A stretch of DNA of 64,000 nt from Squalus acanthias (lineage: Eukaryota): the NCBI GenBank assembly GCA_030390025.1, contig JASTWF010000034.1, positions 868,001-932,000 of the forward strand. The letters are read 5' to 3'. Of the stretch, positions 1 to 61,319 are shown in pieces (positions within the stretch are counted from its first letter, which is position 1; each line of letters opens with the position of its first letter). The notes under the pieces were generated by a model. The model was not told the origin of the DNA. It saw nothing but the letters and a program-made list of their open reading frames with translations, and made no database searches. A program made the position numbers and the translations under genes.

Positions 1-162
1 TGCCGCTTCTGGTAGCACTCTTGTATTAACATACAAACATAAAAACACAGTAGTTAGTACACCAAATGCAATAAGCCAAAGCACGAATGCAAACAGGTAA
101 GGTAATTGGACATTTACGGGTCGCTTGATCTGTAGGTAAAAGAAACACAAAGAAGCGCCCAT
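1..162 (-). CDS. Putative env-position ORF, N-terminal 54 aa only
   Basis: ATG overlaps the pol stop (TAATG, 164-160). Translates MGASLCFFYLQIKRPVNVQLPYLFAFVLWLIAFGVLTTVFLCLYVNTRVLPEAA, open to the window edge, with a ~23-aa hydrophobic segment. Confidence 0.6.
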   Translation of the reverse strand, partial: MGASLCFFYLQIKRPVNVQLPYLFAFVLWLIAFGVLTTVFLCLYVNTRVLPEAA

Positions 163-3100
163 TAGTTCATCTTTTCTCCATATATTTTTAATTGTGTCCA
201 ATGTTTCCAGACTCCCTTCCCCCTTATGTCCAGACAGGCACAGGTATCACCACTAATTATAATTTCGTAGGGTCCGCTCCATTTTGGGGCGAAGCCTGGC
301 TTGTCAGGCAGGACCTTCAGCATCACTTTGCTGCCCGCTGACGGCACGGAGGGTGTCATGACCCCCTCCTGTGCCTGATCCTGGAGTTCCTGATTGTCTC
401 GTACGGCTTGGCGCATCCCCTTCAGTTGGGTGCTAAGCTCTAAGACATAACGCCGTAGTCTGTCCTTTAAGGGGCCCACATCAGCCCCACCTGTTATGAT
501 GCCTTCTGGTAATTGCATCGCCCTTCCTGTCATTAGTTCATAAGGGGTCAGGCCTGTCGTACGATTCGTGGTGGCTCGTAACTTCATTAGGATAAGGGGT
601 AAAACCTCAACCCATGTTTTCCCAGATTCCTGTATTGCCTTTGCTAAAGCGTTTTTGAGTGTTCGATTCATTCTTTCAACCATTCCCGAGCTCTGGGGGT
701 GGTAAGGGATATGGAACTTCTGTTTGATCCCCATCAGCTGACAAATATTCTTTACTACACTCCCTGTAAAGTGCGTTCCTTGGTCAGAGTCGATTTGCAA
801 GGGCACTCCCCACCGCGGGATTACTTCCTCGGCCAGGATTCTGGCTACCGTTAAGGCCGTGCAATTCCGCGTTGGGAAAGCTTCTACCCACCTTGTGAAC
901 TGGTCAATTATCACAAGGCAGTATATTTTTCCGTGGGACTGGGGAAGTGGTCCCGTAAAATCAATTTGTATGTGCTCCCAAGGACCTCGGGGTCTTGGCT
1001 GGTGGCCCATTCTAATTTTAATAGGCCGGCCAGGATTATGCTGAGCACAAGTGATACATCGCTGACAGTGCCTCGCGATGTCTCTTCCCATCCCCTTCCA
1101 CCACCAATCCTTACTTAATAAGGAGCTCATTGCCTCTCTCCCTGTATGTGAAATACCGTGATGTATCTCTAGCAGAGTCTGTTGTATGCACTCCGGTGCT
1201 ACTACTTTACCTTCTTTTCGCCAGACTCGATCGGATCCTACTCCAGCTCCATTTCTTACCCATGTTTCCTTTTCCGTGTCTGATGCTTCGTCTTGGACTT
1301 CCCAGATCTTTATTTCGTTCTCCGGGCTGTCTACGCTGCCCACCAGTACTTCGTTTATCTCCTCCTGTTCTAGAGCTGCCTGTGCTGCCCAATCAGCCGC
1401 CTGGTTCCCCTGGTGGCTGTCCCAGTCTGGGCTTGTCTTGTCTGGTTCTTTCTGATGGGCCTTAATTTTGATAACTGCCACCTGTTTAGGTCTTTTGCTT
1501 GCTTCTAGCAAGGCCTCTATTCGTCCCTGATGTTTGATGGGGTTACCTCCTGTGGTTATATACCCTCTACGTCCCCATGCTGTCATGTAGTCATGCACTA
1601 CCCCGAAGGCATACCGGCTATCTGTGTATATATTGACTACCTGGTTCTTTGCTTCATTCAATGCTTGAGTCAACGCGACCAACTCTGCTACTTGGGCTGA
1701 TAAGCTACCGTCTAACCGTCCAGATTTAACTACTTCCATCTTACTATTAACTACTGCCCACCCGGTTCGGGGTTGTCCATTAATATATTTACGGGATCCA
1801 TCTACATAGAATGTTTCCTCCACTTCCTCTAGAGGGGTGTCTTTGATAATCTCTTCTCCAATGTCCTCGTCTATTTTTTTACAACTGTGTGGGGCTCCTG
1901 TTCCCAGGATCCCCTCAGCTGGGTTCTCCCCTATGTCTCTGACTATGATGATAGACTCGTTAGGGGGTAATAGAACTGCTTCCCACTTAGCTCTTCTCAT
2001 GTTTGAGACAGATCTTAATTTTCCAGTATTTAGCATTTCCACCAAGGTATGCTTGGTGTGCAAGACTATGTTCCCGGTCATTACTATAGGTTCGCTCACC
2101 TTTACTGCCCATGCTGCGCAGTCCAGTGCCGCTATACATCGCGAGAGTCCGGAGACTACCGGTCCTTCTGCGGTCGAGTAGTATGCCACTGGTCTGCGCT
2201 TATCGCCATGGTCCTGGGTTATCACAGCGGTGTAGAACCCGCCCTCATTGTCACAGTGAATATGGAAAGGTTTGTTCATATCTGGCAGCCCTAGTCCCGG
2301 GGCTGACAGTAACTCCTTCTTCAACTGTCCGTAAGCTTTTTCCTGTTCTGGGCCCCACTCTATGGACTCAAGGGCAGGCCTTCCTCCCTTTACTAACCTT
2401 TGGATAGGCTCAGCTATCTTAGCGAACCCGGGGACGAAGTTCCTGCTGTAGTTAAAAAGTCCTAAGACCTTCCTAACTCCCCTTATTGTCACTGGTCTGG
2501 GCATATCCCAGACTGCAGCCTTCCTATCCGTTGGCATCTCCTTTGTCCCTTGGGAAATGAGATGCCCTAGATACGTGACTTTGAACTTTCCAATCTGGGC
2601 CTTCCTAGGGCTAGCCTTCAGTCCTGCGTCCCTTAATGCTGTCAGTACTATCTTCAGGGCCTTATTATGACCTGGAACTTTGTCCGAGGCTATCAGGAGA
2701 TCGTCAACGTACTGGAGGACCGTGCTCCCTGGTGGGAGCTCTGCACCCTTTAAAATATTACTCATTACCCGATGGAAGATCGCGGGGCTATTATGGAATC
2801 CTTGTGGCAGGCGGGTCCAGGTGTACTGTCTGTCTCCTACTGTGAATGCAAATTTCTCCTGAGACTCTGGATCCAATGGGAGAGCCCAGAATCCGTTGGC
2901 TATGTCCAACACTGTGAATATCTTGTGTTCGGGAGCCAGTCCGTTCAAAATTGTGGACGGGCTGGCGACTATGGGGTGAAGCTTGGGCGTCACTTTATTC
3001 AAGGCCGTATAGTCAATTGTCAGCCTGTAACTCCCATCTGGCTTTTTAACTGGCCACGTAGGGGAATTGGTTGTGCTCGTGGTTTCCCGAAGGACACCTC

Positions 3101-3719
3101 TTTCTACCAATCCCTTTACTATGTCTTCTACAGCTTTCTTTGCTTCTGGTTTAATGGGATATTGTCGGTGGGGTTTGTGTTCGGGTCCTGGGACGACAAT
3201 GGGGTCAATCTGAACCATTCCTGTGTCTAACTTATCTTTTGCCCATACTCCTTGTACCGAGGCACACGTGTCCCCGTACCCATTGGTTTCCACTTGCCAG
3301 TCCCGGCTTACCGCTGTAGCCACTCCCACTTTGGTGGTATTATTGGTCAGACAGTGCATACTAGTTTTATGCCCGTCCAAGTTTGGCCAAGTTATTTTCT
3401 TCTTACCACAATCAATTAATACCTGGTATTCTTTCATTAAGTCATTTCCCATTATTGTTCCCTCATTATTCTTACACACGTAAAATCGCATAGGGATGAA
3501 AAAGTTATCTATTTCTACCAATTGGGTTGTGCTCAGAAAGGCAGGTGTTTTATCACCGCCAATCCCTGTGATGTAGACCTTTCTGTCCGTTATCGGGATG
3601 GGAAGGTTGGTCACGGATACTGAGGCACCGGTGTCCACTAGCATCTCACACGGTCGGCCCCCTACTAGTGCAGACACATACATCCTTCCTTTGTCTCTTT
3701 TTACGGGGGCCGCTGACTG
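162..3719 (-). CDS. pol: Retroviral Pol (protease, RT, tether/degenerate RNase H, RNase H, integrase); frame open from 3719, first ATG at 3683
   Basis: LVDTGA protease; LPQGFHNSP and YVDD in RT; FYVDGS..SAQVAEL..IYTDS..KIKAH RNase H; HHCC, IDFTGP/DSDQG/VERMN integrase core; KWSGPY module. Uninterrupted ORF. Confidence 0.96.
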   Translation of the reverse strand, partial: QSAAPVKRDKGRMYVSALVGGRPCEMLVDTGASVSVTNLPIPITDRKVYITGIGGDKTPAFLSTTQLVEIDNFFIPMRFYVCKNNEGTIMGNDLMKEYQVLIDCGKKKITWPNLDGHKTSMHCLTNNTTKVGVATAVSRDWQVETNGYGDTCASVQGVWAKDKLDTGMVQIDPIVVPGPEHKPHRQYPIKPEAKKAVEDIVKGLVERGVLRETTSTTNSPTWPVKKPDGSYRLTIDYTALNKVTPKLHPIVASPSTILNGLAPEHKIFTVLDIANGFWALPLDPESQEKFAFTVGDRQYTWTRLPQGFHNSPAIFHRVMSNILKGAELPPGSTVLQYVDDLLIASDKVPGHNKALKIVLTALRDAGLKASPRKAQIGKFKVTYLGHLISQGTKEMPTDRKAAVWDMPRPVTIRGVRKVLGLFNYSRNFVPGFAKIAEPIQRLVKGGRPALESIEWGPEQEKAYGQLKKELLSAPGLGLPDMNKPFHIHCDNEGGFYTAVITQDHGDKRRPVAYYSTAEGPVVSGLSRCIAALDCAAWAVKVSEPIVMTGNIVLHTKHTLVEMLNTGKLRSVSNMRRAKWEAVLLPPNESIIIVRDIGENPAEGILGTGAPHSCKKIDEDIGEEIIKDTPLEEVEETFYVDGSRKYINGQPRTGWAVVNSKMEVVKSGRLDGSLSAQVAELVALTQALNEAKNQVVNIYTDSRYAFGVVHDYMTAWGRRGYITTGGNPIKHQGRIEALLEASKRPKQVAVIKIKAHQKEPDKTSPDWDSHQGNQAADWAAQAALEQEEINEVLVGSVDSPENEIKIWEVQDEASDTEKETWVRNGAGVGSDRVWRKEGKVVAPECIQQTLLEIHHGISHTGREAMSSLLSKDWWWKGMGRDIARHCQRCITCAQHNPGRPIKIRMGHQPRPRGPWEHIQIDFTGPLPQSHGKIYCLVIIDQFTRWVEAFPTRNCTALTVARILAEEVIPRWGVPLQIDSDQGTHFTGSVVKNICQLMGIKQKFHIPYHPQSSGMVERMNRTLKNALAKAIQESGKTWVEVLPLILMKLRATTNRTTGLTPYELMTGRAMQLPEGIITGGADVGPLKDRLRRYVLELSTQLKGMRQAVRDNQELQDQAQEGVMTPSVPSAGSKVMLKVLPDKPGFAPKWSGPYEIIISGDTCACLDIRGKGVWKHWTQLKIYGEKMN

Positions 3720-3734
3720 TCACTGTGTCTCTTT

Positions 3735-5054
3735 CTACTGTTGATATTGTCTCTTTTCTTCGGGGGTCATGGTGACGTGGGTCGTCTCAGGTCTGCCATG
3801 TTTACTGAAACAAGTGGCCTCAGTATGGCCCTTCTTATTACAGTAAGTACATGTCTTCTTAGCCATACAATCTCTAATAAAATGTCCAGGCTTCCCGCAA
3901 CCATGACATGCCCCCTTGGGTCCCACTGCCTGTTTTACCGCACTTACACTTTCCTGTTTAACCTTGACCGTACCTTCCTCTTTGGCTTTTAACCCGTCTA
4001 CCCCACAAGCCCACTCTACTAGGTCGTCGTAATTCCTGGTTGTTACTACGCCCATCTTGATGATAGCCTGGTGTGCGGGAGACAAGCCATCTTTAAAGGC
4101 CTGAATGAAAGCGGGGTCAGTTCTTGCCGGCCCTGGTTGGCCTGATGACTCTCCATAAACAATAAACAGCCTTTCTCCATATTCGGAGGCCCCCTCGCCC
4201 TTTTGCTGCTTACAGGACGTTATCTTACTCCAATTAGTTGGGGCCTCTCCTAACACCCGCTGGATTTCTGTTTTAAACAGATTAAAGGGAGCCTGTTGTC
4301 GGTCTATTGTATCTGCCAATGGACATTGTTCAGTCCATCGACCGGTCTTATAATCCGTATTGGCCTGATTGGGGGTGGTCTGCGTGAGGCGCCATCGGTC
4401 GACCGGACATGCTGCCCGGACCAACTGATGAACGTCACGCAGGTGGAGGCTGTGTCCCAGCCAAACCATATCTAGGTTTGCCCAGAACTTGGTGTTGGCA
4501 CTTCGTGTTTGTAAGTTCCCCAGGTCTTTCAAAATCTGTTGTCTTTCTCCCGGGGTAAAAGGCTGAAAATCCGCCCTTGCCCCGGCGGCACCAGGCTGGC
4601 CCCTCATTCTAACGGGGGCCGCGAAATATTCTTCTGTTGTATCCCCAACTGTTTCTTCAGTTGGGGCTGTTGGTCCGGAAAGTCCGTACGGGGGGAGTGG
4701 ATCTGTGTTACACCCCGTCCACCTTCCGGGACACATTCTACTTTGTTCTTGATTTATTCCCTCTAGTATTTCTATCTTCTTTTTTAAATCTGCTATTTCT
4801 CTGTTTTTGGCCTTCTCAGTCTCTCGGACCTTATCTACTTGCTCGATTAGTCCCGCCAATTGGTGTACCAAAAGAACTCCCGTTTTCTTGGTTTTCTCCC
4901 TTTTTTGCTTACGTACCCACTCTCGTTGTGACTCTAATGACTGGCTAACATCCCAGCCATCTTTCTGCATTCTGTCTATCAGCGAACGTCTATCTGTCAT
5001 GTAACTATTAATAAGGGACCCCGGGGGCCCCATCTTAATGTCCTTACCTGACAT
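3735..5054 (-). CDS. gag: Retroviral Gag polyprotein (439 aa)
   Basis: Late-domain-like LPPY and PTAP motifs, MHR-like ITSCKQQKGEGASEYGERL, two zinc knuckles CHGCGKPGHFIRDC and CTYCNKKGHTEATC. Confidence 0.92.
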   Translation of the reverse strand: MSGKDIKMGPPGSLINSYMTDRRSLIDRMQKDGWDVSQSLESQREWVRKQKREKTKKTGVLLVHQLAGLIEQVDKVRETEKAKNREIADLKKKIEILEGINQEQSRMCPGRWTGCNTDPLPPYGLSGPTAPTEETVGDTTEEYFAAPVRMRGQPGAAGARADFQPFTPGERQQILKDLGNLQTRSANTKFWANLDMVWLGHSLHLRDVHQLVRAACPVDRWRLTQTTPNQANTDYKTGRWTEQCPLADTIDRQQAPFNLFKTEIQRVLGEAPTNWSKITSCKQQKGEGASEYGERLFIVYGESSGQPGPARTDPAFIQAFKDGLSPAHQAIIKMGVVTTRNYDDLVEWACGVDGLKAKEEGTVKVKQESVSAVKQAVGPKGACHGCGKPGHFIRDCMAKKTCTYCNKKGHTEATCFSKHGRPETTHVTMTPEEKRQYQQ

Positions 5055-5397
5055 CGCCCGTCCGCTCTCCGATCACACTCTCCAGTAAACACTCACCGCC
5101 TCTCTTCACTCTCCCGTCCTTCTGGACTCGTGAACTCGTTTACCGACGTGTCTAGTTGCCTGGAGTTCCGGATCTCGCAAGCACTGCCCGCAGACTTTAT
5201 CACAGGTTTTACTCTGTACCTTTAACCTACGGCCCAAAAATTTGACAGTGTAATGCAGAATACTCACAACGGTTCCCCCTCTGCCTTCCGAGAATACCCG
5301 GACCAAAAACCCCTATAAAGTGTACTCTCGCAAATCCCCTCAGATTCTTTCGGTTACTTGAGCCCGTTAACACTTGATCAGGGTGTCGGTACTCAGT

Positions 5398-5416
5398 AAC
5401 CCTGCTCGCAGCGCCA
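5398..5416 (-). promoter_or_regulatory. Primer-binding site, tRNA-Ser type
   Basis: Minus strand TGGCGCTGCGAGCAGGGTT. Plus strand AACCCTGCTCGCAGCGCCA resembles the 3' end of vertebrate tRNA-Ser(UGA/CGA) plus CCA (tRNA sequence recalled, not searched). Confidence 0.8.
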
Positions 5417-5418
5417 AT

Positions 5419-5928
5419 TGTTGTAGGGGCTAATCGGAGCCTTAAGCGGACTAACCGTGAAGGAGAGTCGACGCGCTACCCGACTTAGCCCGACTGAGCA
5501 ATAAAACTCAAACACCAATTTACACGGTTAAATGCGGGAGTACACTTTATTCAGAGCGCTCTGGGAGAGAATTGATGCACCCACGTGCAGTCACCGACCT
5601 CTCAAATAAGTCACTCTGGGGCACAGTATTTTATACATCCATCATTGATTACATCGTGCTCACATGAGCATGTGATAGTCATTAGAATCCAATCAATTTT
5701 ATGTATACAATTGTTAAGCATAGTAAATCAATTAACGTCAGGATACAGTTGATGTGATCAGCCTCGTCTATGTGACAGTGTTATCTCGAGCCCTGTATGT
5801 TGCAACGTTGTCTGACAAGGCAGACTGCCAATCCATTGCAGAAAAGTCCTGTGTCAGCGAATTTAAAGTTCATTAACTGGATGAGTTTTTCTTCTCCGAC
5901 ATTTCTTTAATAATTTTCTCCTCCAACA
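5419..5928 (-). repeat. ERV 5' LTR (510 bp)
   Basis: Minus strand starts TGTTGGAG (5928) and ends CTACAACA (5419), 2 nt before the PBS. TATAAAA at 5635-5629 and AATAAA at 5551-5546. CR1 sequence starts abruptly at 5929. Confidence 0.88.
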
Positions 5929-7848
5929 GTCTTAAATAATAGTTTCTAGCATCTTCCCTAAGACAGGTGTTAAGCTAACTGGCCTGTAGTTTCCTGCTTT
6001 CTGTCTCCCTCCCTTTTTGAATAAAGGAGTTACAATCGCTATTTTCTAATCTAATGGAACCTTCCCCGAATCTTGGGAATTTTGGAAAATTAAAACCAAC
6101 GCATCAACTATCTCACTAGCTACTTCTTTTAAGACCCTAGGATGAAGTCCATCAGGACCCGGGGACTTGTCAGCCCGCATCTCCAACAATTTCCTCAGTA
6201 CTACTTCCCTGGTGATTGTAATTTTCTTGACTTCCTCCCTCCCTTCCATTTCCTGATTTACAGCTGTTTCTGGGATGTTACTTGTATCATCTATAGTGAA
6301 GACCGATGCAAAATACCTGTTCAATTCAACTGCCATCTCCTTATTTTCCATTATTAATTCCCCAGACTCACTTTTTATAGGACCAACGCTCCCTTTGTTA
6401 AATATTTTCTTTTTAGAATATCTGTAGAAACTCTTACTATCTGTTTTTATATTTCTAGCTAGCTTTCTCTCGTAATCTAATTTTTCTCTCCTTATTAATC
6501 TTTTAGTAATTCTTTGCTGTTTGTTTATATTCTGTCCAATCTTCTGACCTGCCACCCATCTTTTCACCAATATATGCTTTTTCTTTAAGTTTGATAATAT
6601 CTTTAACTTTTTTAGTTAACCACGGATGGTGGGTCCTCCCCTTGGAATTTTTCTTTCTCTTCGGAATGGATCTATTCTGTGTATTCTGAAATATCCCATT
6701 AAATGTCTGCCACTGCAGCTCTATTGACCTATCGCTTACTCCAGTTTGCCAGTTCACTTTAGCTAGCTCTGCTATCATGCCCTCATAATTGCCCTTATTT
6801 AAGTTAAAAAAAACTAGTCTTGGACCAAATCTTCTCTCCCTCAAACTGAATGTAAAATTCAATCATATTATGATCGCTGCGACCTAGGGGCACCTTCACT
6901 ATGTGGTCATTAATTAATCTTATCTTGTTTCACAATACCAGGTCCACTATAGCCTGCTCTCTGGTTCGCTCCAGAACGTGCTGTTCTAAGAAACTGTCCC
7001 AAAAACATTCTATGAACTCCTCATCTGGGCTACCTTTGCCCATCTGATTTTTCCGTCTATATGTAGATTAAAATCCCCCATGATTATTGCCGTACCTTTC
7101 TGACAAGCTCCCATTATTTCTTCCTTGATACTCCATCCTAACGTGTGGTTACTGTTAGGGGGCCTGTACACCACTTTCACAAGTGACTTCTTGCCTTCAT
7201 CATTTCTCATCTCTACCCAAACCGCTTCTAAATCCTGGTTTCCTGAAATTAAGTCATCCCTCTATTGCGTTAATACCATTATTAATTTACAGAGCCACCT
7301 CTCCACTTTTTCCTGAATATCATGTACCCTTCAATATTCAGGTCCCAATGTTTGTCATCCTGCAGCCATGTCTCTGTAATGGCTATCAGATTGTACTTAT
7401 TTAATTCTATTTGCGCCATCAGTTCATCTGTTTTGTTTCGAATGCTACGTGCATTCAGATACAGAGTCTTTAGTTTTGTCCTTTTATTATTTTTGTAACC
7501 TTTAGCCTTATCTGTTGATTTACTCTTAGATTTGTACTCTCTGTCCCTTCCCGTCACGGTCTGTTTATCATTTCCCATATTAATACCTTTCTCGCTTGTC
7601 TTGTTTCTACACTTTGATTTACCACATCTTCCCAGATTTGATCCCTGGCCCCCAATATTTAGTTGAAAGCCCTCTCTACCGCCCGAGTTATATGACTCGC
7701 CAGAACACTGGTCCCAGCACGGTTCAGGTGAAGACCAACCCAACGGTACAGATCCCAGTTTCCCCAGTACTGGTGCTAGTGCCCCAGGAAGCAAAACCAC
7801 TTTCTCCCATACCAGTCTTTGAGCTACGCATTCATCTCTCTAATTTGA
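5929..7848 (-). mobile_element. CR1 LINE, decayed ORF2 5' half (APE endonuclease to start of RT), interrupted by the ERV
   Basis: YLNARSIRNK, IAITETW, VYRPPN, IMGDFN, KSPGPDGLHPRVLKE across frameshifted ORFs. Confidence 0.92.
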
Positions 7849-10800
7849 TGGAACAGGGTAGAGGGAGCTTTACTCTGTATCTAAACCGTGCTGTATCTGC
7901 CCTGGGAGTGTTTGATGGGTATTTGTAGAGGGAGCTTTACTCTGTACCCAACACGTGCTGTACCTGCCCTGGGATTGTTTGATGGGACAGTGTAGAGGGA
8001 GCTTTATTCTGTACCTAACCCGTGCTGTACCTGCCATGGGGCTGTTTGATGGGACAGTGTAGAGGGAGCTTTACTCTGTATCGAACCCGTGCTGTACCTG
8101 CCCTGGGAGTGTTTGAAGGCTCTTTGTAGAGGGAGCTTTACTCTGTATCCAATCCAGGTTGTATCTTCCTGGGAATATTTGAAGGGACAGTGTAGAGGAA
8201 CCTTTACTTTGCATCAATTCCTGTGCTGTACCTGTCCTGGGAGTGTTCGATAGGTCTTTGTAGAGGGAGTTTTACTCTGTACCTAACCCGTGCACTACCT
8301 GCCCTGCGAGTATTTAATGCTACAGTGATGAGGGAGCTTTACTCTTTCAAAACAGTGCTGTACCTGCCCTGGGAGTGTTTGATGGGACAGTGTAGAGGGA
8401 GCTTTACTCTGTATCTAACCCGTGCTGTACCTGCCATGGGAGTGTTTGATGGGTCAGTGTAGAGGGAGCTTTACTCTGTATCTAACCCGTGCTGTACCTG
8501 CCATGGGGCTGTATGATGGGACAGTGTAGAGGGAGCTTTACTCTGTATCTAACCCGTGCTGTACCTGCCCTGGGAGTGTTTGATGGTCATGATGCGGAGA
8601 TGCCGGTGTTGGACTGGGGTGGACAAAATTGAGAGGTCGCACAACACCAGGTTATAGTCCATCAGTTTTATTTGAAATCACAAGCTTTCGGAGCTTACTA
8701 CTCCTTCGTCGGGTGAAGTAAGCTCCGAAATTTCAAATAAAACTGTTGGACTATAACCTGGTGTTGTGCGACCTCTCAGTGTTTGATGGGACAGTGTAGA
8801 GGGAGCTTTACTCTGTATCTAACCTGTGCTGTACTTGCCCTGGGAATATTTGAAGGGTCTTTGTAGAGGAAGCTTTACTCTGTATCTGACCCGTGCTGTA
8901 CCTGCCCTGGGAGTGTTTGATGGGACAGTGTAGAGGGAGCTTCACTCTGTATCTAACCCGTGCTGTACCTGCCCTGGGAGTGTTTGAAGGCTCTTTGTAG
9001 AGGGAGCTTTACTCTGTATCTAACCCAGCCTGTATCTTCCTGGGAATATTTGAAGGGACAGTGTAGAGGAAGCTTTACTTTGCATCAATACCTGTGCTGT
9101 ACCTGCCCTGGGAGTGTTCGATAGGTCTTTGTAGAGGGGGTTTTACTCTGTACCTAACCCGTGCATTACCTGCCCTGCGAGTATTTAATGCTACAGTGAT
9201 GAGGGAGTTTTACTCTTTCAAAACAGTGCTGTACCTGCCCTGGGAGTGTTTGATGGGACGGTGTAGATGCAGCTTTACTCTGTATCTAACCCCGTGCTGT
9301 ACCTGCCCTTGGAGTGTTTGATGGGACAGTGTAGAGGGAGCTTTGCTCTGTATCTAACCCGTGCTGTAACTGCACTGGGAGTGTTTGATGGGGCAGTGCA
9401 GAGGGAGCTTTACTCTGTATCTAACCCCGTGCTGTACCTGCCATGGGCTGTTTGATGGGACAGTGTAGAGGGAGCTTTACTCTGTGTCTAACCGGTGCTG
9501 TACCTGCCCTGGCAGTTTTTGATAGGACAGTGTAAAGGGAGCTTTACTCTGTACCTAATCCATGCACTGCTTGCCCTGAGAGTGGTTGAGGGGACAGTGT
9601 AGAGGGAGCTTTATTCGGTATCTAACGCGGGCTGTACCTGCCTGAGAAAGTTTGATGCGACAGTGTAGAGGAAGCTTTACTCTGTATCTAACCCGTGCTG
9701 TACCTGCCCTGGTAGTGTTTGATGGGACAGTGTAGAGGGAGTTTTAATCCGTATCTAACCCTTGCTGTACCTGCCCTGCGAGTGTTTGATGGGGCAGTGT
9801 AGAGGGAGCTTTACTCTGCATTTAACCTGTGCTGTACCTGCCCTGCGAGTGTTTGATGCAACAGTGTAGAGGGAGCTTCATTCCATATCTGATCCATGCT
9901 GCACCTGCCCCGGGACTGTTTGTTGGGACAGTGTAGATGGAGCTCTACTCTGTATCTAACCATTGTTCCATCTGCCCTTGGTGTGTTTGATAGCACAATG
10001 TAAAGTGAGCTATACTCTGAATCTCACCCGTGCAGTACCTGGCCTGGGAGTGTTTGATTTGATAGTATACAGGGAGCAAATGTCAGTATCTAACCCCGTG
10101 CTGTACCTGCCCTGGGAATATTTGATGGGACAGTGTAGAGGAAGATTTACTCTGCATCCAACCCCGTTCTGTACCTGCCCTGGGAGTGTTTGATGGGACA
10201 GTGCAAAGGGAGTTTTACTCTGTATCTAACCCGTGCTGTACCTGTCCTGCGAGTGTTTGATGGGACAGTGTAGAGGGAGCTTTACTCTGTATCTAACCCC
10301 GTGCTGAACCTGCCATGGGGCTGTTTGATGGGACAGTTTAGAGGGATCTTTACTCTGTATCTAACCCATGCTGTACCTGCCCGGGGAGTGTTTGATGGGA
10401 CAGTGTAGAGGGAGCTTTACTCTGTATCTAACCTGTGCTGTACCTGCCCTGGGAGTGTTTGATAGGACAGTGTAGAGGGAGCTTTATTCGTTATCTAACG
10501 CGGGCTGCACCTGCCTGAGAAAGTTTGATGGGTCAGTGTAGAGGAAGCTTTACTCTGTATCTTACCTGAGCTGTAGCTGACCTGGGAGTGTTTGATGGGA
10601 AAGTGTAGAGGAAGCTTTACTCTGTACCTAACCCGTGCTGTACCTGCACTGCGAGTGTTCGATTGGGCAGTGTAGAGGGTGCTTTACTCTGCATCTAACC
10701 TGTGCTCTATCTGCCCTGGGGGTGTTTGATGGGACAGTGCAGAGGGAGCTTTACTCTGTATCTAACCCCGTGCATTACCTGCCCTGCGAGTGTTTGATGG

Positions 10801-12595
10801 GGCAGTGTAGAGGGAGCTTTATTCGATATCTAACCATTGCAGTACCTGCCCTGGGAGTGTATGATGGGATTCTGTAGAGCGATCTTTACTCTGCATCTTA
10901 CCTGTGCTGTGCTTGTCCTCGGAGAGTTTGATGGGACGGTGTAGAGGGAGATTTACTCTGTATGTAACCCCGTGCTGTACATGCCCTTGGAGTGTTTGAT
11001 TGGACAGTGTAATGGGAGCTTTACTCTTTACCTAACCCATGCACTACTTGCCCTGCGAGTGTTTGATGGGACAGTGAAGCGGGAGCTTTACTCTGTATCT
11101 TACCTAAGCTGTAGCTGACCTGGGAGTGTTTGATGGCACAGTGCAGAGGGAGCTTTACTCTGTATCTTACCCCGTGCATTACCTGCCCTGCGAGTATTTG
11201 ATGGGGCAGTTAGAGGGAGCTTTATTCTATATCTAACCATTGCAGTACCTGCCCTAGGAGTTTATGATGGGATTCTGCATCTTACCTGTGCTGTACCTGT
11301 CCTGGCAGTGTTTGATGGGACAGTGTAGAGGGAGCTTTACTCTGCATCTAACCCGTGCTGTACCTGCCCTGGGAGTGTTTGATGGGGTAGTTTAGGGGGC
11401 ACTTTATCTGTATCTAACCATTGCCCTGGGACTGCTGAATGGGACAGTGTAGAGGGAGCCCTACTCTATATCTAACCATTGTTGTATCTGCCCTTGGTGT
11501 GTTTGATGGCACAATGTATAGTGAGCTTTACTCTGTATCTAACCCGTGCAGTATCTGGCCTGGGAGTGTTTGTTGGAACTGGATAGAGGGGTCTTTACTC
11601 TGTATCTAACCCGTGCTGTTCCAGAACTGGGAGTGTTTGATGTGATAGCATACAGGGAGCTTTACACAGTATCAAACCCGTGCTGTACCTGCCCTGGGAG
11701 CGTTTGATGGGGCAGTGTAGAAGCAGCTTTACTCTGCATCTTACCCGTGCAGTACCTGGCCTGGGAGTGTTCAATGTCACAGTATACAGGGAGCTATAGT
11801 CAGTATCTAACACGGGCTGTACACGCCTGGGAATATGTAATGTGACAGTGTGGAGGAAGCTTTACTCTGCATCCAACCCAGTGCTGTACCTGCCCTGCGA
11901 GTGTTTGATGGGACAGTGTAGCGGGAGCTTTACTCTGTACCTAACCGATGCACTAACTGCCCTGCGAGTGTTTGATGGGACAGTGCAGTGGGAGCTTTAC
12001 TCTATATCTAACCCGTGCTGTACCTGCCCTGGAAATGTTTGATGGGACAGTGTAGAGGGTATTTAATCTGTATCTAAACCGTACTGTTCCTGCCCTGGGA
12101 GTGTTTGATGGGACAGTGTAGAGGGAACATTATTCTGCATCTAACTAGTGCTGTAGCTGTCTGGGAATCGTTGTTGGCGCAGTGCAGAGAGAGCTTTACT
12201 CTGTATCTTAACCTTGCTGTACCTGCCCTGGGAGTGTTTGATGGGATTTTGTAGAGAGAGCTTTACTCTGTATCTAAACCTTGCTGTACCTGCCCTGGGA
12301 GTGTGTGTTGGGACAGTGTAGAGGAAGCTTTACTCTGTATCTAAACCGTGCTGTACCTGCCCTGGGAGTGTTTGATGGGATTGTGTAGAGGGAGATTTAC
12401 TCTGTATCTAAACCTTGCTGTACGTGCACTGGGAGTGCTTGACAGCCAGTGTATTGTGCGCTTTACTCTATATCGAACCCATGCTGTACCTAACCTGCGA
12501 GTGTTTGATGGGACAGTGCAGAGGGATCTTTACTAAGTATCTAACAAATGCTGTACCTGCCCTGGGACTGTTTGATGGGACAGTGTACTGGGAGC
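7848..12595. repeat. 67-bp satellite array (ctctgtatctaacccgtgctgtacctgccctgggagtgtttgatgggacagtgtagagggagcttta)
   Basis: Direct tandem periodicity of 67 nt (e.g. 8401 vs 8468). Confidence 0.95.
8587..8777 (-). mobile_element. Short Penelope-like remnant (inverted terminal repeat fragments) in the satellite
   Basis: Matches the terminus of the element at 19801-21518; internal inverted repeat; flanked by direct repeat agtgtttgatgg (8575-8586 and 8778-8789). Confidence 0.8.
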
Positions 12596-12922
12596 CTTAT
12601 AACTCTTTATAACGTTAGAATCCTTAATAAACATTTACAAAAGGTGTATAATGGGTTATTAAGGATGATAATGATTTATAAAGGGTCATGTCCCTTTATC
12701 ATATTTTGCATCACTTTGTACCCCGTTCAAATCCCTTTATAATCCTTTGTCAATCATTATAACAATTTATAAGCCTTTGTCGATCATTACCACCCTTTAT
12801 ATTCCTTAACCATTCATCATAACACTTTATATTCTATTATCAAACTTTATATATCATTATAATACTTTATATTCATTTATAATAATTTATAACCCAACAT
12901 AATCCTTTATACCCTTTATAAA
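12596..12922. repeat. AT-rich low-complexity tract (ttataa-like units)
   Basis: Repeated tttata/attata motifs. Confidence 0.7.
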
Positions 12923-49179: not shown

Positions 49180-49275
49180 TATAGAATCATAGAATGGATA
49201 CAGGACAGAAGGAGGCCTTACGGCCCGTCGAGCCCGTGCCGGCTCTCTGCAAGAGCACTTCAGCAAGTCCCACTT
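49180..49275 (-). mobile_element. CR1/SINE 3' tail fragment
   Basis: Minus strand ends ggcctccttctgtcctgtatccattctatgattctat. Confidence 0.6.
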
Positions 49276-49659
49276 ATCCAATCCCCTTTTCATATACTCT
49301 ACACCCCTAACTGTAACACTGATATACCCCACACCCCTCACTGTTACACTGATATACCCTACACCCCTCACTGTAACACTGATACACCACAAACCCCTCA
49401 CTGTAACACTGATACACCACAGACCCCTCACTGTAACACTGATATACCCCACACCCCTCACTGTAACACTGATAAACCACAGACCCCTCACTGTAACACT
49501 GATATACCCCACACCCCTCACTGTAACACTGATTTACCCCACACCCCTCACTGTAACACTGATATACTCCACACCCCTCACTGTAACACTGATATACCCC
49601 ACACTCCTCACTGTAACACTGATATACTCCACACCCCTCACTGTAATTCTGATATGCAC

Positions 49660-49853
49660 TGTCGTAAGAATGAGCCTTACGCGTGGTGAACTTAAAGTAA
49701 GCTTTAATCAACTAAAAAGGTGCTACATACAAAAGAGGTCTTACTCTATGCCTCTCCAGGATCCAACTGCTCAGTCCAGTATTTATCCTGGACTAATCAC
49801 AGGAAGTGATGCAATAAAGTTCGAGTCACAGGAAGCTGTATTGTGTTACCACA
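49660..49853 (-). repeat. Gypsy 3' LTR
   Basis: Direct repeat of 53907-54100; preceded on the minus strand by a G-run plus AGAA. Confidence 0.96.
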
Positions 49854-49871
49854 TTCTCCCCCCCCAAAAGA

Positions 49872-52800
49872 TTAGGAGGCCGGGATGCTCCCTCCATTTC
49901 GTAGCCGCCGGACGAGGGAGAGCCGCACCCGTTTGGGTTCTCGTAGCGGTAGAGGGGCCCTAGCCCGTTTACCCGCCGCGGGCCGTGGACCAGAGTCCGA
50001 GTGATCCAGCCCGCTCTGTGAGGGGTCAGGACGATCCTGACTGTGTACTGGTGCCCGAACGGGTGTCGGGCAGGGCTGTGGCAGATCCGTTTCCGAGCGT
50101 ATGGTACGGGGTGGATCGTGGCTGCGCGTGCGAGCCCCGACGGGCTCATAGTCAGTCTGCCCCAGGTCGGCACGCTGGAGTGAGGTACCAGCCGGCGTCA
50201 GATCCAGATCGTGATGAGAGGCACCTGGCGAGCACAGAGATGTGCCTGGTACAATATCATCCCCTGGTGTCCCTCTATGTTTCGGCGGGCAGGGAGCCAG
50301 ATCCCGCAATGACACGGTAGATTCCCGACCGTCAGGATACCGAATATAGGCGTAGGTAGGGTTGACGTCAGTGAGCTCAACCTCATCTACCAGGGGGTCA
50401 TTCTTAGACGCCCGAACATATCTTCGGAGTAGCACTGGTCCCGGTGCAGTCAGCCACGATGGGAGAGATATCCCATAGGATGAGCGACGCTGAAATCGGA
50501 AGAACCGTTCATGAGGCGTCGTATTTGTGGCGGTCGAAAGGAGGGACCATGTGGAGTGTAATGCGTCTGGAAGTACTGCTTCCCATTGCTGGTTGGGTAG
50601 GCCCCGAGATCTCAAAGCCAGACGTACCGCATTCCAGATGATAGCGTTAAAACGCTCGACTTGCCCATTCCCGACCGGATGATAAGGCGTCGTTCTGCTG
50701 GCAGCAATACCCCGTTCCGAGAGATAGGCCTTGAGTTCTCCTGACATAAAAGAAGGGCCCCGATCCGAATGAACATAGGATGCCATGCCACAGAAAGCAA
50801 ATACCTGCTCAAGGCAGCTGATAACCGTGGTCGTCAGCATATTGGGGCAGGGAAAGGCGAACGGAAAACGGGAATACTCATCGACCATGGTCAATAGATA
50901 AGTGTTGCGAGTTGAAGAGGGCAACGGCCCCTTAAAATCGATGCTAAGCCGTTGCATTGGCTGGGTCGCATGTATGAGTATACCACCCGAGGGGCGGAAA
51001 AACTGAGGTTTCAATTCCGCACAGACTCTGCAGTCCGAGCACATCTTCTTTACATCCCCGGTAGAGAATGGGAGATTTCGGGAACGCACGAAGTGTAGCA
51101 TGCGAGTAACGCCCGGATGACACAACCCATCATGGATGTCTACGAGCATAGAGGGTGCCATGGCGGAGCAGAATGCTCGTGTGAGGGTATCCGGAGCCAC
51201 ATTCTCCTTGCCAGGTCGATAGTGGATGGTGTAACCAAAAGAGGCCAATTCCAGCCGCCAAAGCTGGATTTTATTATTTTTAATTTTGGTCCGTTTTCGA
51301 TTATCGAGCATGAAGGCGACCGATCGCTGGTCCGTGATTAAGGTAAAGTGCTGGCGAGCTAGGAGATGAGTCCACTTCCGTACTGCCTCTATGATGGCTG
51401 TAGCTTCTTTCTCGACTGGAGGATAATGTAGCTCAGCCCCTTGAAAAGTCCTGGACAAAAATGCCACCGGACGACCTTCCTGATTCAGAGTGGCCGAGAC
51501 CGCCACCTCCGAGGCATCACACTCAACAACAAAAGGAAGACTCTCATCGATGGAGTGAAGAGCCGCTTTCTCCAACTGTTTTTTCAGGAGGTTAAAGGCT
51601 GCAACAGCCGCTGTGTCTAGTGGGAATGTGCTGGCCTTCAGTAGAGGTTGGATTCGGTCCGAGAAGTTAGGAATCCATTTAGCATAGTATGCAAACAGGC
51701 CGAGGGCCCGGCGCAAGGAGGCCGGATTCTTAGGTGGCGGGAGCTCTTGGAGTGGGCGAAGCCTTTCAGGGTCAGGTTTAATGATGCCATTGCCCACACA
51801 ATAGCCAAGGATGTTGATGGTTGGTTGTGACTCAATGGATTTAGCCGCATTTAATGTCAAATTACGGTGCTGGAGTGCATCCCAAAATCGTTGGAGATTG
51901 GCGTCATGTTCCCGCTGATTGCGACCTGCGACAGTAATATTGTCCAGATAAGGAAACGTATCCTTCAAGTCTTCCTGTTTGACCAGGTCATCCATTGCTC
52001 GCTGGAAGACAGCCACTCCAAAAGTGACCCCAAAGGGGAGGCGACGAAATTGATACAGCCGTCCATTGGCTTCAAAGGCCGTATACTGCTTGTCTGAGAC
52101 CTTCAAGGGTACCTGATGATAGGCACTTTTCAGATCATATGTTGAGAACACCGTGTACTCAGCCAGTTTATTAACCATATCATCGATGCGCGGCAATGGG
52201 TATGCATCCAAGTCCGTATATTGATTGATGGTCTGTGAATAGTCAATGCACAGCCGTTTCTTGTGAGGTTGTAGAGGGTTCTTAACAATAACGACCTGGG
52301 CGCGCCATGGCGACGAACAAGGCTCGATGATATCCTCTGCTAAAAGCCAAGAAATCTCAGCCGCAATAAAAGACTGGTCTTCCTGACTGAAACGTCGTGA
52401 CTTTGTTATAATCGGTTTGCATCGAGGAGGGATACTGGTAAACAGTGAGGGTTCATCCAGTGAAGCTGCTGACAATGCACAGAACGGTAATCGAGGTCGT
52501 ATATTAGAAATAGTGAGTTCAGGTTTGGATCCGCCGAACTCAATGGTGAGCTTCTTATGCTGCTTTTGAAAATCCAGCCCTAAGATAAGATCACTACATA
52601 AGTCCTTGAGCACCGAAAGCCGGGTGGAGGGATACCTGTGACCATTAAGTGTTATTTCAACCATACAAAAGCCAGAAATTCTGGTATTAAGTGATGACTG
52701 AGCCATCGCAATTGCCTGGTCCGATGGGAAAACATGTAGCTTTAACTCTGCAACAATCTGTTCCCTAATGAAACTATCAGTGCTACCTGAGTCAATTAAG

Positions 52801-53828
52801 GCATCTAAAGTATGTCCATTAATTGATGCTTTTGTAGCTGCATGGAATAGGTTCTGAGGACAAGCAGCTGTAATTGGTGTCGTTGCACAAAGAGTGGCTG
52901 AAACTCTAGGTGTGTTTCTTCGAGAGAAAACCCGAGAGGAAGCACGATAGATTTTAGCCGGAACATCTTGATAGGCCCTTACCGGGGCAGTTCGGTAGGA
53001 CTTAGCTTGATAAGCCCTCGTAGAGGCTCTTGATAGGCAAACCTTTGCAAAATGACCCTTTTTGTTGCAATGACTGCAAAACGCATTGCGAGCAGGGCAG
53101 AATTTCCGAGGGTGAAACTCATCACCACAAAAGAAGCATTTCTTAGATTGCCAAGAGGCTGCCACAGTGGGGTCATCATCCTCTTCATCAGTGAAGTCAT
53201 CAGATTGATCGTCAGGAATAAAGTCCTCCCTAATAGAGTTCACCTCTGGCCTCTTAAATTGCCTGACTGTAGTTAAGGCAGCAGACCGAGGTCTGGGCAC
53301 TGTATAAAGGTCTGCATTTCTTTTTGCCAGATCTAGAGAGCAAGCCATGTCATAAGCTCTCTGAAGCTCAAGTGTCTTACTTTCCAGTAGACGCTGGCGT
53401 ATAAATGGGGAGGCAAGCCCGCAGATGAAAGCATCACGGATCATTTCTTCACGGTACAGCTCAGCTGAGGCCGCCTGAAAGTTACAGTCCATACTAAGTC
53501 TGCGAAGCTCTTGGAGGAATTTATCAATGGATTCCTCCGGCCCTTGTTGGGCTGTAGCTAGTAGATGTCTGGCATAGACCTCATTCGGTGTCTTAGTATA
53601 TAGTCTTTTAAGCGTCCGAATTGCCTCCTCGTAACTGCCCCATTCCTCAACATACTGAAATACATTCGGAGTGACACAGTTGATGAGTATCCGCAACTTT
53701 GTGTCATCATCAGCCTTGCAATATTCGAGAAAATTGTCAAACGTGCGATACCAGTGTTTCCACACCTTACCGGCTGCTGGGGTGTTTGGGTCCAAGTCAA
53801 GACGCGATGGTTTAAGGATGTTTTCCAT
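49872..53828 (-). CDS. Gypsy Gag-Pol polyprotein (1318 aa)
   Basis: Two CCHC knuckles, LIDSGS protease, YLDN RT, ECDAS RNase H, HHCC and IDFKGP/HSDRG/QVER integrase; order PR-RT-RH-IN. Confidence 0.96.
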   Translation of the reverse strand: MENILKPSRLDLDPNTPAAGKVWKHWYRTFDNFLEYCKADDDTKLRILINCVTPNVFQYVEEWGSYEEAIRTLKRLYTKTPNEVYARHLLATAQQGPEESIDKFLQELRRLSMDCNFQAASAELYREEMIRDAFICGLASPFIRQRLLESKTLELQRAYDMACSLDLAKRNADLYTVPRPRSAALTTVRQFKRPEVNSIREDFIPDDQSDDFTDEEDDDPTVAASWQSKKCFFCGDEFHPRKFCPARNAFCSHCNKKGHFAKVCLSRASTRAYQAKSYRTAPVRAYQDVPAKIYRASSRVFSRRNTPRVSATLCATTPITAACPQNLFHAATKASINGHTLDALIDSGSTDSFIREQIVAELKLHVFPSDQAIAMAQSSLNTRISGFCMVEITLNGHRYPSTRLSVLKDLCSDLILGLDFQKQHKKLTIEFGGSKPELTISNIRPRLPFCALSAASLDEPSLFTSIPPRCKPIITKSRRFSQEDQSFIAAEISWLLAEDIIEPCSSPWRAQVVIVKNPLQPHKKRLCIDYSQTINQYTDLDAYPLPRIDDMVNKLAEYTVFSTYDLKSAYHQVPLKVSDKQYTAFEANGRLYQFRRLPFGVTFGVAVFQRAMDDLVKQEDLKDTFPYLDNITVAGRNQREHDANLQRFWDALQHRNLTLNAAKSIESQPTINILGYCVGNGIIKPDPERLRPLQELPPPKNPASLRRALGLFAYYAKWIPNFSDRIQPLLKASTFPLDTAAVAAFNLLKKQLEKAALHSIDESLPFVVECDASEVAVSATLNQEGRPVAFLSRTFQGAELHYPPVEKEATAIIEAVRKWTHLLARQHFTLITDQRSVAFMLDNRKRTKIKNNKIQLWRLELASFGYTIHYRPGKENVAPDTLTRAFCSAMAPSMLVDIHDGLCHPGVTRMLHFVRSRNLPFSTGDVKKMCSDCRVCAELKPQFFRPSGGILIHATQPMQRLSIDFKGPLPSSTRNTYLLTMVDEYSRFPFAFPCPNMLTTTVISCLEQVFAFCGMASYVHSDRGPSFMSGELKAYLSERGIAASRTTPYHPVGNGQVERFNAIIWNAVRLALRSRGLPNQQWEAVLPDALHSTWSLLSTATNTTPHERFFRFQRRSSYGISLPSWLTAPGPVLLRRYVRASKNDPLVDEVELTDVNPTYAYIRYPDGRESTVSLRDLAPCPPKHRGTPGDDIVPGTSLCSPGASHHDLDLTPAGTSLQRADLGQTDYEPVGARTRSHDPPRTIRSETDLPQPCPTPVRAPVHSQDRPDPSQSGLDHSDSGPRPAAGKRARAPLPLREPKRVRLSLVRRLRNGGSIPAS

Positions 53829-53906
53829 GATGGGTGATTCCCTGGATCCTTAGTTCCGAGTTCGTCCAAAAAGTTTGAGTGCGAAGTTTTTCAAAGTTGA
53901 TTAAAT

Positions 53907-54100
53907 TGTCGTAAGAATGAGCCTTACGCGTGGTGAACTTAAAGTAAGCTTCAATCAACTAAAAAGGTGCTACATACAAAAGAGGTCTTACTCTATGCCT
54001 CTCCAGGATCCAACTGCTCAGTCCAGTATTTATCCTGGACTAATCACAGGAAGTGATGCAATAAAGTTCGAGTCACAGGAAGCTGTATTGTGTTACCACA
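53907..54100 (-). repeat. Gypsy 5' LTR
   Basis: Direct repeat of 49660-49853. Confidence 0.96.
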
Positions 54101-56293
54101 TGCACCACTCCCCTCACTGTAACACTGACATACCCCACACCCCTCACTGTAACACTGATATACCCCACACCCCTCACTGTAACACTGATATACCCCACAC
54201 CCCTCAGTGTAACACTGATATACCCCACACCCCTCACTGTAAAACTGATACACCCCACACCCCTCACTGTAAAACTGATATACACAACACCCCTCACTGT
54301 AACACTGATATACTCCAAACCATTCACTGTAACACTGATGTACACCACACCACTCACTGTAACACTGATATATCCATATACCCCACACCCCTCAGTATGA
54401 CACTAAAATACCCCACACCCCTCACTGTAACGCACTGATATAAACCACACCCCTCACTGTAACACTGATATAGCCAACACCCCTCACTGTAACACAGATA
54501 TATACAGCACCCCACACTGTAAAACTCATAAACCCCACAACCATCACTGTAACACTGATATACACCACACCCTTCACTGTAACACTGATATAACCCATAC
54601 CCCTCACTGTAACACTGATATTACCCGACACCCCACACTGTAACACTGATATACCCCACACCCTTCACTGTAACACTGAAATATCCCGCACCCCTCACTT
54701 TAACACTGATATACCCCACATCCCTCACTGTAACACTGATGTACCACACAACTCTCACTGTAACACTGATATACCCCACACCCCTCACTGTAACACTGAT
54801 ATACCCCACACCCCTCACTGTAACACTGATATAACCGACACCTCTCACTGTAACACTGATATTACCCGACACCCCACACTGTAACACTGAGATACCCCAA
54901 ACCCTTCACTGTAACACTGATATACCCCACACCCCTCACTGTAACACTGATATACCCCACACACCTCACTGTAACACTGATATACCCCACACCACACACT
55001 GTAACACTGATATACCCCACACCCCTCACTGTAACACTGATATACCCCGCACCCCTCACTTTAACACTGATATACCCCACACCCCTCACTGTAACACTGA
55101 TATACCCCACACCCCTCACTGTAACACTGATATACCCCACACCCTTCACTGTAACACTGAAATATCCCGCACCCCTCACTTTAACACTGATGTACCACAC
55201 AACTCTCACTGTAACGCTGATATACCCCACACCCCTCACTGTAACACTGATATACCCCACACCCCTCACTGTAACACTGATATACCCCACACCCCTCACT
55301 GTAACACTGATATAACCGACACCCCTCACTGTAACACTGATATTACCCGACACCCCACACTGTAACACTGATATACCCCACACCCTTCACTGTAACACTG
55401 ATATACCCCACACCCCTCACTGTAACACTGATATACCCCACATCCCTCACTGTAACACTGATGTACCACACAACTCTCACTTTAACACTGATATACCCCA
55501 CACCCCTCACTGTAACACTGATATACCCCACACCCCTCACTGTAACACTGATATAACCGACACCCCTCACTGTAACACTGATATTACCCGACACCCCACA
55601 CTGTAACACTGAGATACCCCAAACCCTTCACTGTAACACTGATATACACCACACCCCTCACTGTAACACTGATATACCCCACACCCCTCACTGTAACACT
55701 GATATACCCCACACCACACACTGTAACACTGATATACCCCACACCCCTCACTGTAACACTGATATACCCCGCACCCCTCACTTTAACACTGATATACCCC
55801 ACACCCCTCACTGTAACACTGATATACCCCACACCCCTCACTGTAACACTGATATACCCCACACCCTTCACTGTAACACTGAAATATCCCGCACCCCTCA
55901 CTTTAACACTGATGTACCACACAACTCTCACTGTAACGCTGATATACCCCACACCCCTCACTGTAACACTGATATACCCCACACCCCTCACTGTAACACT
56001 GATATACCCCACACCCCTCACTGTAACACTGATATAACCGACACCCCTCACTGTAACACTGATATTACCCGACACCCCACACTGTAACACTGATATACCC
56101 CACACCCTTCACTGTAACACTGATATACCCCACACCCCTCACTGTAACACTGATATACCCCACACCCCACACTGTAACACTGATATACCCCACACCCCAC
56201 ACTGTAACACTGATATACCCCACACCCCTCACTGTAACACTGATATACCCCGCACCCCTCAATTTAACACTCTGATTCACTGGGAAGGCGAGC

Positions 56294-59200: not shown

Positions 59201-59697
59201 TTAGTGGGCCAGTGAGCTGCTGGTTTAGTGGGCCAGTGAGCTGCTGGTTTAGTGGGGAGGTGAGCTGCTGGTTTAGTGGGGAGTGAGCTGCTGGTTTAGT
59301 GGGGCGGTGAGCTGCTGGTTTAGTGGGGCGGTGAGCTGCTGGTTTAGTGGGGCGGTGAGCTGCTGGTTTAGTGGGGAGGTGAGGTGCTGGTTTAGTGGTG
59401 AGGTGAGCTGTTGGTTTAGTGGGGTGGTGAGCTGCTGGTTTAGTGGGGCAGTGAGCTGCTGGTTTAGTGGGGCGGTGAGCTGCTGGTTTAGTGGGGCAGT
59501 GAGCTGCTGGTTTAGTGGGCCAGTGAGCTGCTGGTTTAGTGGGGCGGTGAGCTGCTGGTTTAGTGGGGCGGTGAGCTGCTGGTTTAGTGGGGCGGTGAGC
59601 TGCTGGTTTAGTGGGGAGTGAGCTGCTGGTTTAGTGGGGCGGTGAGCTGCTGGTTTAGTGGGGAGGTGAGCTGCTGGTTTAGTGGGGCGGTGAGCTG
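56294..59697. repeat. 24-bp minisatellite (gtgagctgctggtttagtgggcca)
   Basis: Roughly 140 tandem copies. Confidence 0.96.
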
Positions 59698-60039
59698 TTA
59701 TCATTCGTTTTTCTTGCCCATTAATCTCTGTCAGTTTGTTCTTTACTCTCCCACACAGGTGTGTTAATTACCTGCTGCTGTAACCTTCAAACCCTCACAG
59801 CTTCCAATGTCCTTTACAAAAGGGACTGATTCTCTGGCCACACTCCCCAGCAGTCCTCCAGACACCTTGCTGGTATTAAATTCAATCTTCACACTCACCC
59901 ATGCTTGGCAGCAGATGTGTGTCTATCTGGACTGTGTTTTAACCTAACTTAATCCCATGTTATTCTAGCTTAATATTGAAATAACTCTATATGTCAACCA
60001 GTGTATTCTATTTAATAATCGATACATACCAATACTTAC

Positions 60040-60590: not shown

Positions 60591-60809
60591 TTAAAAGGAG
60601 ATTACAAAAGTCATCACTAAGTACAGGACAGAAATTCAGAACAGAGAATTCTCGTTTCTATGGTACAATCTTTCCTCTCGTATTTCCCCCCAAAAGCTGT
60701 AACTTTCTGTCCCACACACTCTCCCTCTCCTGAAATCCTTACCCATTGCACCATATCTTTTCCCCTCTCCCAGTCTCTCCCACCCTCTGCTCTCCAGTTC
60801 TACAGACCC

Positions 60810-61315: not shown

Positions 61316-61319
61316 TGCT

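Follow-up and report, generated by a model that had tools for sequence, protein, structure and literature searches.

The nearest described counterpart of the element reported here, an endogenous retrovirus (ERV) on the minus strand of a 64,000-nt stretch of Squalus acanthias DNA (contig JASTWF010000034.1, positions 868,001–932,000; hereafter the window), is whale-shark Rh_ty_ERV4 (Xu et al. 2018, PMC6001957); features of published elements are given as they stand in the accessible portions of the cited sources. Rh_ty_ERV4 is known from an incomplete reconstruction of 6.5 kb in which some residues are ambiguous, whereas the family of the window copy (hereafter the shark family) is complete, young and multi-copy. 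In a comparison covering 400 letters from the start of each record, about 92 of 134 reverse transcriptase (RT) residues matched by hand count (~69%), and the two share a near-identical protease start, two zinc knuckles and an in-frame TGA-CGG junction between gag and pol. Rh_ty_ERV4 thus appears, as judged from these residues, to be in the same lineage as the shark family. The RT closely matches an already described ERV, which is largely the result that the initial annotation of this DNA had named as one that would speak against its proposal of a loki-like or otherwise deep fish lineage. What we describe is a new, well-preserved family of a lineage already known, of which the window copy has a defect of its own where gag meets pol. 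With high confidence, the family is a young, multi-copy shark ERV family that carries a gamma-type env, belongs to the lineage reported from whale shark and is not a lokiretrovirus.

Snakehead retrovirus (SnRV) shares with the shark family an in-frame gag-pol stop, RT motifs and homology in the capsid/nucleocapsid part of Gag (E=9e-13), but the two are only 31% identical in Pol, and SnRV has a TAG junction, one knuckle, a different primer-binding site (PBS), a long env without a TLV_coat match and a 3′ accessory open reading frame (ORF). Two further elements are likened by description only: ERV-SA.a-Ppe (bioRxiv 10.1101/2021.11.23.469661), an anamniote element, perhaps of the sawfish Pristis pectinata to judge by its name, that joins an SnRV-related (class III) Pol to a gamma-type Env, and XtERV-S of Xenopus tropicalis (PMC8278194). 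The latter resembles the shark family in its length of ~8 kb, identical long terminal repeats (LTRs), Ser PBS, TGA junction and pairing of a non-class-I pol with a class I transmembrane subunit (TM), but its gag-pol is ERV-L-like, with YIDD and a dUTPase and without a knuckle. Epsilon-like ERVs (WDSV/WEHV, Xen-1) have a readthrough junction, a class-I-type RNase H and, in Xen-1, two knuckles; however, the shark-family RT lies outside their clade. SSSV, ZFERV and a frog ERV are also reported to have UGA gag-pol junctions (PMC13517186). The two knuckles, Ser PBS and TGA junction, which had been taken as marks of an unusual lineage, are therefore not diagnostic, each being known elsewhere (Xen-1, XtERV-S and SSSV/ZFERV). 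Lokiretroviruses (Wang and Han 2020, PMC7947760) share a tether plus RNase H and a gag-pol-env order with LTRs, but have a PFG motif in RT, a foamy-type RNase H and an F-like env; they were detected in none of six chondrichthyan genomes screened (PMC7947760). A literature search, with Repbase and subscription journals outside its scope, found no published description of the exact family.

The shark ERVs described in the sources cited here are either partial, like the whale-shark element, or old, elephant-shark copies having been dated above 50 million years (My; PMC4422223). The shark family supplies members that are both complete and young from a little-sampled branch lying between SnRV and class I, and its primer, junction and env are thus open to direct reading. 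It is also a further instance of a non-class-I pol combined with a gamma-type env. Views on the origin of retroviruses are unchanged by it.

Provirus structure and coding capacity

The provirus is real and complete. It is 7,964 bp long and lies on the minus strand, as do all its features given below in window positions; LTR, PBS, gag, pro, pol, env, polypurine tract and LTR are all present together with the target-site duplication. The 5′ LTR (5419..5928) is 510 bp long, ends in TG..CA and carries TATAA at LTR position 294 and AATAAA at 378; the 3′ LTR, just beyond the window at G000:C2671:865965-866474, shows 0 differences from it (100% identity over 510 bp). The 5′ copy of the 4-bp target-site duplication lies at 5929..5932, and the identical four bases stand beside the 3′ LTR in L001. 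The insertion site is inside a long interspersed element (LINE), of which RT fragments remain in the 3′ flank (RVT_1, E=9e-11). The PBS (5399..5416) is complementary at 18 of 18 positions to the 3′ end, with CCA, of two host tRNA-Ser(UGA) genes (L102, L105); ARAGORN called the host tRNA genes Ser(tga), with three of four loci called Ser and two matching the PBS exactly. The 510-bp LTR and tRNA-Ser-type PBS of the initial annotation are thereby confirmed, and the env and second LTR that it had expected in the adjacent DNA were both recovered there.

Gag (3735..5054) has 439 aa in the window copy and contains LPPY (4686-4697), PTAP (4662-4673) and two CCHC knuckles (3867-3908 and 3810-3851), all located by motif, as had been annotated. 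The junction was readable in 29 of the 32 sibling copies fetched, all 29 of which end Gag at a TGA in frame with pol (3720..3722 in the window), the putative readthrough stop. The initial annotation had correctly placed this TGA at the junction but missed a second in-frame stop at 3735-3737, five codons ahead of it, which ends gag in the window copy. This extra stop is present in none of the 29 readable siblings, and the window copy is therefore not fully intact. Because the extra stop precedes the junction, Gag of the window copy would be slightly shortened and Pol would probably be made in small amounts or not at all, although the stop may be an assembly error instead of a mutation.

Pro-pol (162..3719) is a single open frame of 1,185 codons, in which motif and Pfam coordinates place the protease DTG (3624-3635), RT LPQGFHNSP (2784-2810) and YVDD (2700-2711), the tether (about 1971-2357; PF17919/PF17917), RNase H (about 1371-1817; PF00075) and integrase (IN, from about 1196). 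The uninterrupted pol with a tether plus an RNase H was thus rightly recognized at the outset.

Env begins 38 nt outside the window edge (G000:C2671:866553-867962) and is 469 aa long, with CWVC at residue 48, RTRR at 259, an immunosuppressive domain (ISD) at 321 and CX6CC at 337; TLV_coat matches with E=1e-16. Env type is no formal criterion for clade Huo, which is defined on RT. A gamma-type Env is defined by CXXC in the surface subunit, a furin site, ISD plus CX6CC and a membrane anchor (PMC9967133), and by its sequence motifs the shark-family Env is a conventional one. Its best database matches are shark proteins (45–47%), and in a tree of TM it groups with gamma-type Envs of fishes and sharks (82/81, unstarred), whereas the env of SnRV gave no match to the TM query of the shark family. 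The nearest named relatives of both Pol and Env are shark proteins and the genome measures 3.7 Gb, which gives good support to the probable shark genome that had been guessed from the letters.

In the proposed replication scheme, genomic RNA would be driven by the LTR, with Gag translated from the first ATG and Gag-Pol made by readthrough of the in-frame UGA; reverse transcription would be primed by host tRNA-Ser(UGA), and integrase would leave 4-bp duplications. The region downstream of the junction stop weighs against this scheme, since it folds no more stably than shuffled sequence (z=-0.21), and readthrough, splicing and translation are read from sequence only. A candidate readthrough stem-loop, an 8-bp G-C helix starting 7 nt after the stop, was rejected on the same fold comparison; the minimum-energy folds of a sister family (family B, described below) did not reproduce the 8-bp helix after the junction.

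Phylogenetic placement

The careful tree of RT plus tether comprised 36 chosen rows and 406 columns, with delta rows and five of seven Gypsy rows dropped; a quick RT tree of 75 rows broadly agrees with it. The trees were built without rows for class II beta, lenti and alpha viruses, SSSV, ZFERV, confirmed ERV-L and Rh_ty_ERV4. The SnRV reference (L014) was identified from its TAG-GGC junction (PMC13517186) and from RT text in the supplement of PMC7947760, its published length being 10,688 nt (PMC12193657). L048 is Xen-1 by its RT text, L056 was taken as WDSV, and the Loki-type rows (P0321, P0346, P0352) were chosen for the PFG motif of the Loki RTs in the supplement of PMC7947760.

The window RT falls in a seven-row shark/teleost clade (100/95), inside Retroviridae (100/98), together with a protein of a Mustelus cluster (81%), Heterodontus, Pimephales and other rows. 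It is placed away from Gypsy elements, and its tether plus RNase H differs from the single RNase H of Gypsy/Metaviridae. Gamma and epsilon form an 11-row clade with 100/100 support that excludes the window, and grouping of the shark/teleost clade with the epsilon-like rows was rejected in an approximately unbiased (AU) test (p=3.2e-6). The family therefore does not fit a typical gamma or epsilon ERV and represents a deep fish lineage, as the initial annotation had supposed. SnRV branches next (84/84), after class I, eel/gar rows and the shark/teleost clade, and the Loki-motif rows (99/99) form the sister group of the retroviruses as a whole, agreeing with their published position. The family thus lies in a shark/teleost clade between SnRV and class I.

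Several results weigh against a closer tie to SnRV and the whale-shark element. The free tree joins the seven-row clade to class I plus eel/gar rows (94/94, unstarred), nearer to class I than SnRV is, and monophyly with SnRV is absent from it, although the AU test does not reject that grouping (p=0.057). With a Gag profile, two metagenome relatives rank highest, followed by Xen-1 (65 bits) and SnRV (40). The IN tree lacks resolution at depth (bootstrap unsettled, no CGIN1 row) and its deep nodes are weak. Rh_ty_ERV4 was compared by eye, outside the trees, and its listing in the Clade Huo block, between SnRV and the foamy group (PMC6001957 S2 Fig), follows the order of text in that figure. Because the clade lies near class I in the free tree and the Gag profile favours Xen-1, "SnRV-related" may denote a grade instead of a clade.

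A rather unlikely alternative is a basal class I ERV from the gamma/epsilon stem, that is, a sister lineage of class I that inherited its gamma-type env without gaining it by recombination. Besides the 94/94 node and the Gag ranking, this alternative draws on the gamma-type env and on a class-I-like RNase H (pairwise 82–106 bits on class I rows, ≤22 on Loki-motif and foamy rows). However, support for that node is under the star threshold, grouping with SnRV is left unrejected, and the whale-shark relative stands in the Huo block.

Membership in the lokiretroviruses, or in another lineage sister to all retroviruses that would be the first from cartilaginous fish, is favoured by the dual RNase H layout and by an NSPxWPVxKPxGxxRL motif that the window RT and Loki-type RTs have in common; but this motif is also found in SnRV, the AU test rejects the grouping (p=2.4e-7), RT reads LPQG instead of the PFG of five readable Loki RTs in the supplement and the three Loki-motif rows, IN falls outside the Loki-motif clade (100/100), the RNase H scores only ≤22 bits on those rows and Env has TLV_coat and CX6CC with no match at E≤1 to PF00523, the paramyxo-/pneumovirus F family, so that the proposal is rejected on RT, env type and RNase H as extremely improbable. 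The phylogeny called for in the initial annotation thus excludes Loki and epsilon through RT, with IN weak at depth.

A related pol lineage was seen in a metagenome collection (L049), with an env that lacks CX6CC and has no Pfam match; env types therefore differ along the grade.

Copies, age and occurrence in other sequencing runs

Probing of the own genome with LTR (99–100%), RT (98–100%) and env (about 99–100%) revealed at least 40 near-identical copies with each probe, a lower bound for the copy number that had been asked for. A 13-nt core of the PBS occurs 362 times, against two occurrences for a control; 32 were of tRNA type, and seven of 16 inspected sites belong to this family. This suggests a family size of very roughly 100–200 copies, a figure drawn from a non-random sample. 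The 32 fetched siblings were taken from among the top-scoring matches and diverge from the window copy by 0.08–1.85%; gag, pol and env are all open in at least seven of them. Among the first 12 siblings, the target duplication is 4 bp in ten, 5 bp in one and absent in one.

Comparison of 13 LTR pairs gave seven differences in 6,630 sites, or ~2.4 My at the rate adopted in PMC4422223 (2.2e-10 per site per year). The window copy itself, with 0 differences in 510 bp, is therefore only bounded to younger than about 13 My. Five older copies have larger LTR-LTR differences, consisting of seven substitutions in one and of length in four. The recent activity suggested in the initial annotation is supported insofar as the family is young.

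Private env variants are short of replacements, with a ratio of replacement to silent polymorphism (pN/pS) of 0.47 (p=0.0006), or 0.55 outside CpG (p=0.01); in shared pol variants the ratio is 0.46 (p=0.011). Spread through the germline probably took place during the past few million years, at least in part by env-dependent reinfection, and copies with deleted pol would have been carried along in trans. Two observations count against the reinfection step: private variants appear to be neutral in gag (pN/pS 0.98) and pol (0.99), as do pooled non-CpG pol variants (1.01). This step, although likely, is weakened by them.

The siblings contained further structural variants. L008, L012 and L013 share one deletion from protease to RNase H, likely marking a non-autonomous subfamily spread in trans. 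L008 also has an inserted frame of 268 codons (4705-5508, plus strand) whose match to GIY-YIG is weak (E=4e-4, short of the cut-off), possibly a Penelope-type fragment. LTR variants L072-L082 carry a 60-bp duplication in U3 (570 bp in total), triplicated in L079. In L074, L075 and L082 the duplication is in the 3′ LTR only; because normal reverse transcription would not give this arrangement, it points to recombination at a later time, contraction of the repeat or an error in assembly.

Sequence of the family was also found in other sequencing runs, which carry five organism labels, one missing label and one fish-gut metagenome label. Twenty of the 21 listed runs, from seven studies, hold 0.64–0.94 of the sampled words, and those under the five organism labels hold 0.72–0.94. 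The long contig pieces found under four of the labels match a sibling copy at ~99.3–100% identity. Four runs cover the sibling L002 almost wholly, and one of them gives a single contig of 7,455 nt with nine substitutions and two gaps. Two runs, X10 and X11, contain a 1,758-nt deletion in pol like that in three copies of the genome G000, and one X10 contig ends in poly(A) at LTR position 410, ~27 nt past AATAAA. Together these give only a weak hint of transcription, because the RNA status of the runs is guessed and the labels may stand for close relatives. A joint from position 7628 to 175, present in all four runs, is expected from the LTR repeat and was not taken for a DNA circle. A scan of viral contigs with a single protein found nothing. 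In X10 and X11, a diverged relative sharing the integrase C-terminus (L002:5570-5907) reaches depths of 1145 and 468, far above the shark family.

Near-identical sequence under five organism labels raises the question of whether the family remains infectious or has crossed from one shark species to another in very recent times. The three open frames in at least seven of 32 siblings, the poly(A) end and the shortage of replacements in env are consistent with this. However, the labels may be one species or close congeners, a divergence of 0.1% corresponds to about 2.3 My at 2.2e-10 and is compatible with vertical inheritance, and the runs are RNA only by guess; we therefore consider continued infectivity or such movement unlikely. 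If the near-identity did reflect interspecies transmission, it would indicate that a retrovirus of sharks is still live. A wider proposal, quite unlikely in our view, is that the family is the endogenous form of a retrovirus still or very recently circulating among several shark species, of a lineage sister to all gamma- and epsilonretroviruses, and gives the best-preserved view of the class I ancestor, with its Ser primer, two knuckles, UGA readthrough and gamma-type env.

The pol–env interval, sister families and the rest of the window

Env would be expressed from a spliced RNA in which a donor in the leader is joined to an acceptor at 130. The candidate major donor is predicted at 5091..5099 and a second candidate at 5047, just inside gag; consensus scans scored them 7/9 and 8/9, and they are kept in 29 and 30 of the 32 siblings. 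The predicted acceptor (130..154), a polypyrimidine tract plus AG, had the top score among 526 AG sites in window positions 1-5928 and is kept in 30 of 32 siblings; the env ATG follows 167 nt downstream in a strong context. Contigs of the sequencing runs, with their guessed RNA status, contain no spliced env joint and give no evidence either way.

The interval between pol and env corresponds to the third ORF of the initial annotation (1-246). An open, hydrophobic frame of 57 codons is indeed present (1..162), its ATG overlapping the pol stop, but it is not env and overlies the predicted acceptor; the third ORF had no Pfam match at E<0.1. Very likely this frame is env leader and splice-acceptor region and no gene. 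That it encodes a small accessory membrane protein is improbable, although it has a hydrophobic segment and equal length in 20 of 32 siblings, extends to 87 codons in six older copies and occupies the position of a conserved small membrane ORF in sister families. The predicted splice would remove its ATG, because its first codons are the pyrimidine tract of the acceptor, and its first 36 codons show five replacement and no silent variants. The 87-codon form in the older copies implies that the young subfamily expanded carrying a frameshifted version. Homology with the sister-family ORF was rejected for want of any similarity signal, the score being 0.5 bits at most against up to 4.9 for shuffles.

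The sister families (L107, L112, L106, L108) use the same Ser PBS and carry between pol and env a conserved single-pass membrane ORF of 76–81 codons (L107:2586-2813, minus strand). In the own genome, all 150 scored matches to this ORF lie at 67–100%, and 139 of them are without a stop. It has no Pfam match above the cut-off; influenza M2 was returned at 0.86 in the ESM Atlas, as a lead only, and an accessory role akin to that of Vpu or a viroporin is conjectural. Sister family B (L107, G000:C1:136.72 Mb; L112, C2:10.38 Mb) is 8.8 kb long with 545-bp LTRs 98.5–99.3% alike, and has the same PBS, two knuckles and a TGA-CTA junction, which is the type II readthrough hexamer (PMC13517186). Its Pol is 63–72% and its Env 46% identical to those of the shark family, and its env has an N-terminal extension of ~90 aa.

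The remainder of the window is rich in repeats. Large tandem arrays with units of 67, 24, 30, 65 and 75 bp occupy 7750-12600, 18200-45300 and 49200-63900, some of them in both orientations. An uninterrupted Gypsy-type Gag-Pol frame of 1,325 codons with a single RNase H, which served as an outgroup, lies on the minus strand at 49875-53849.

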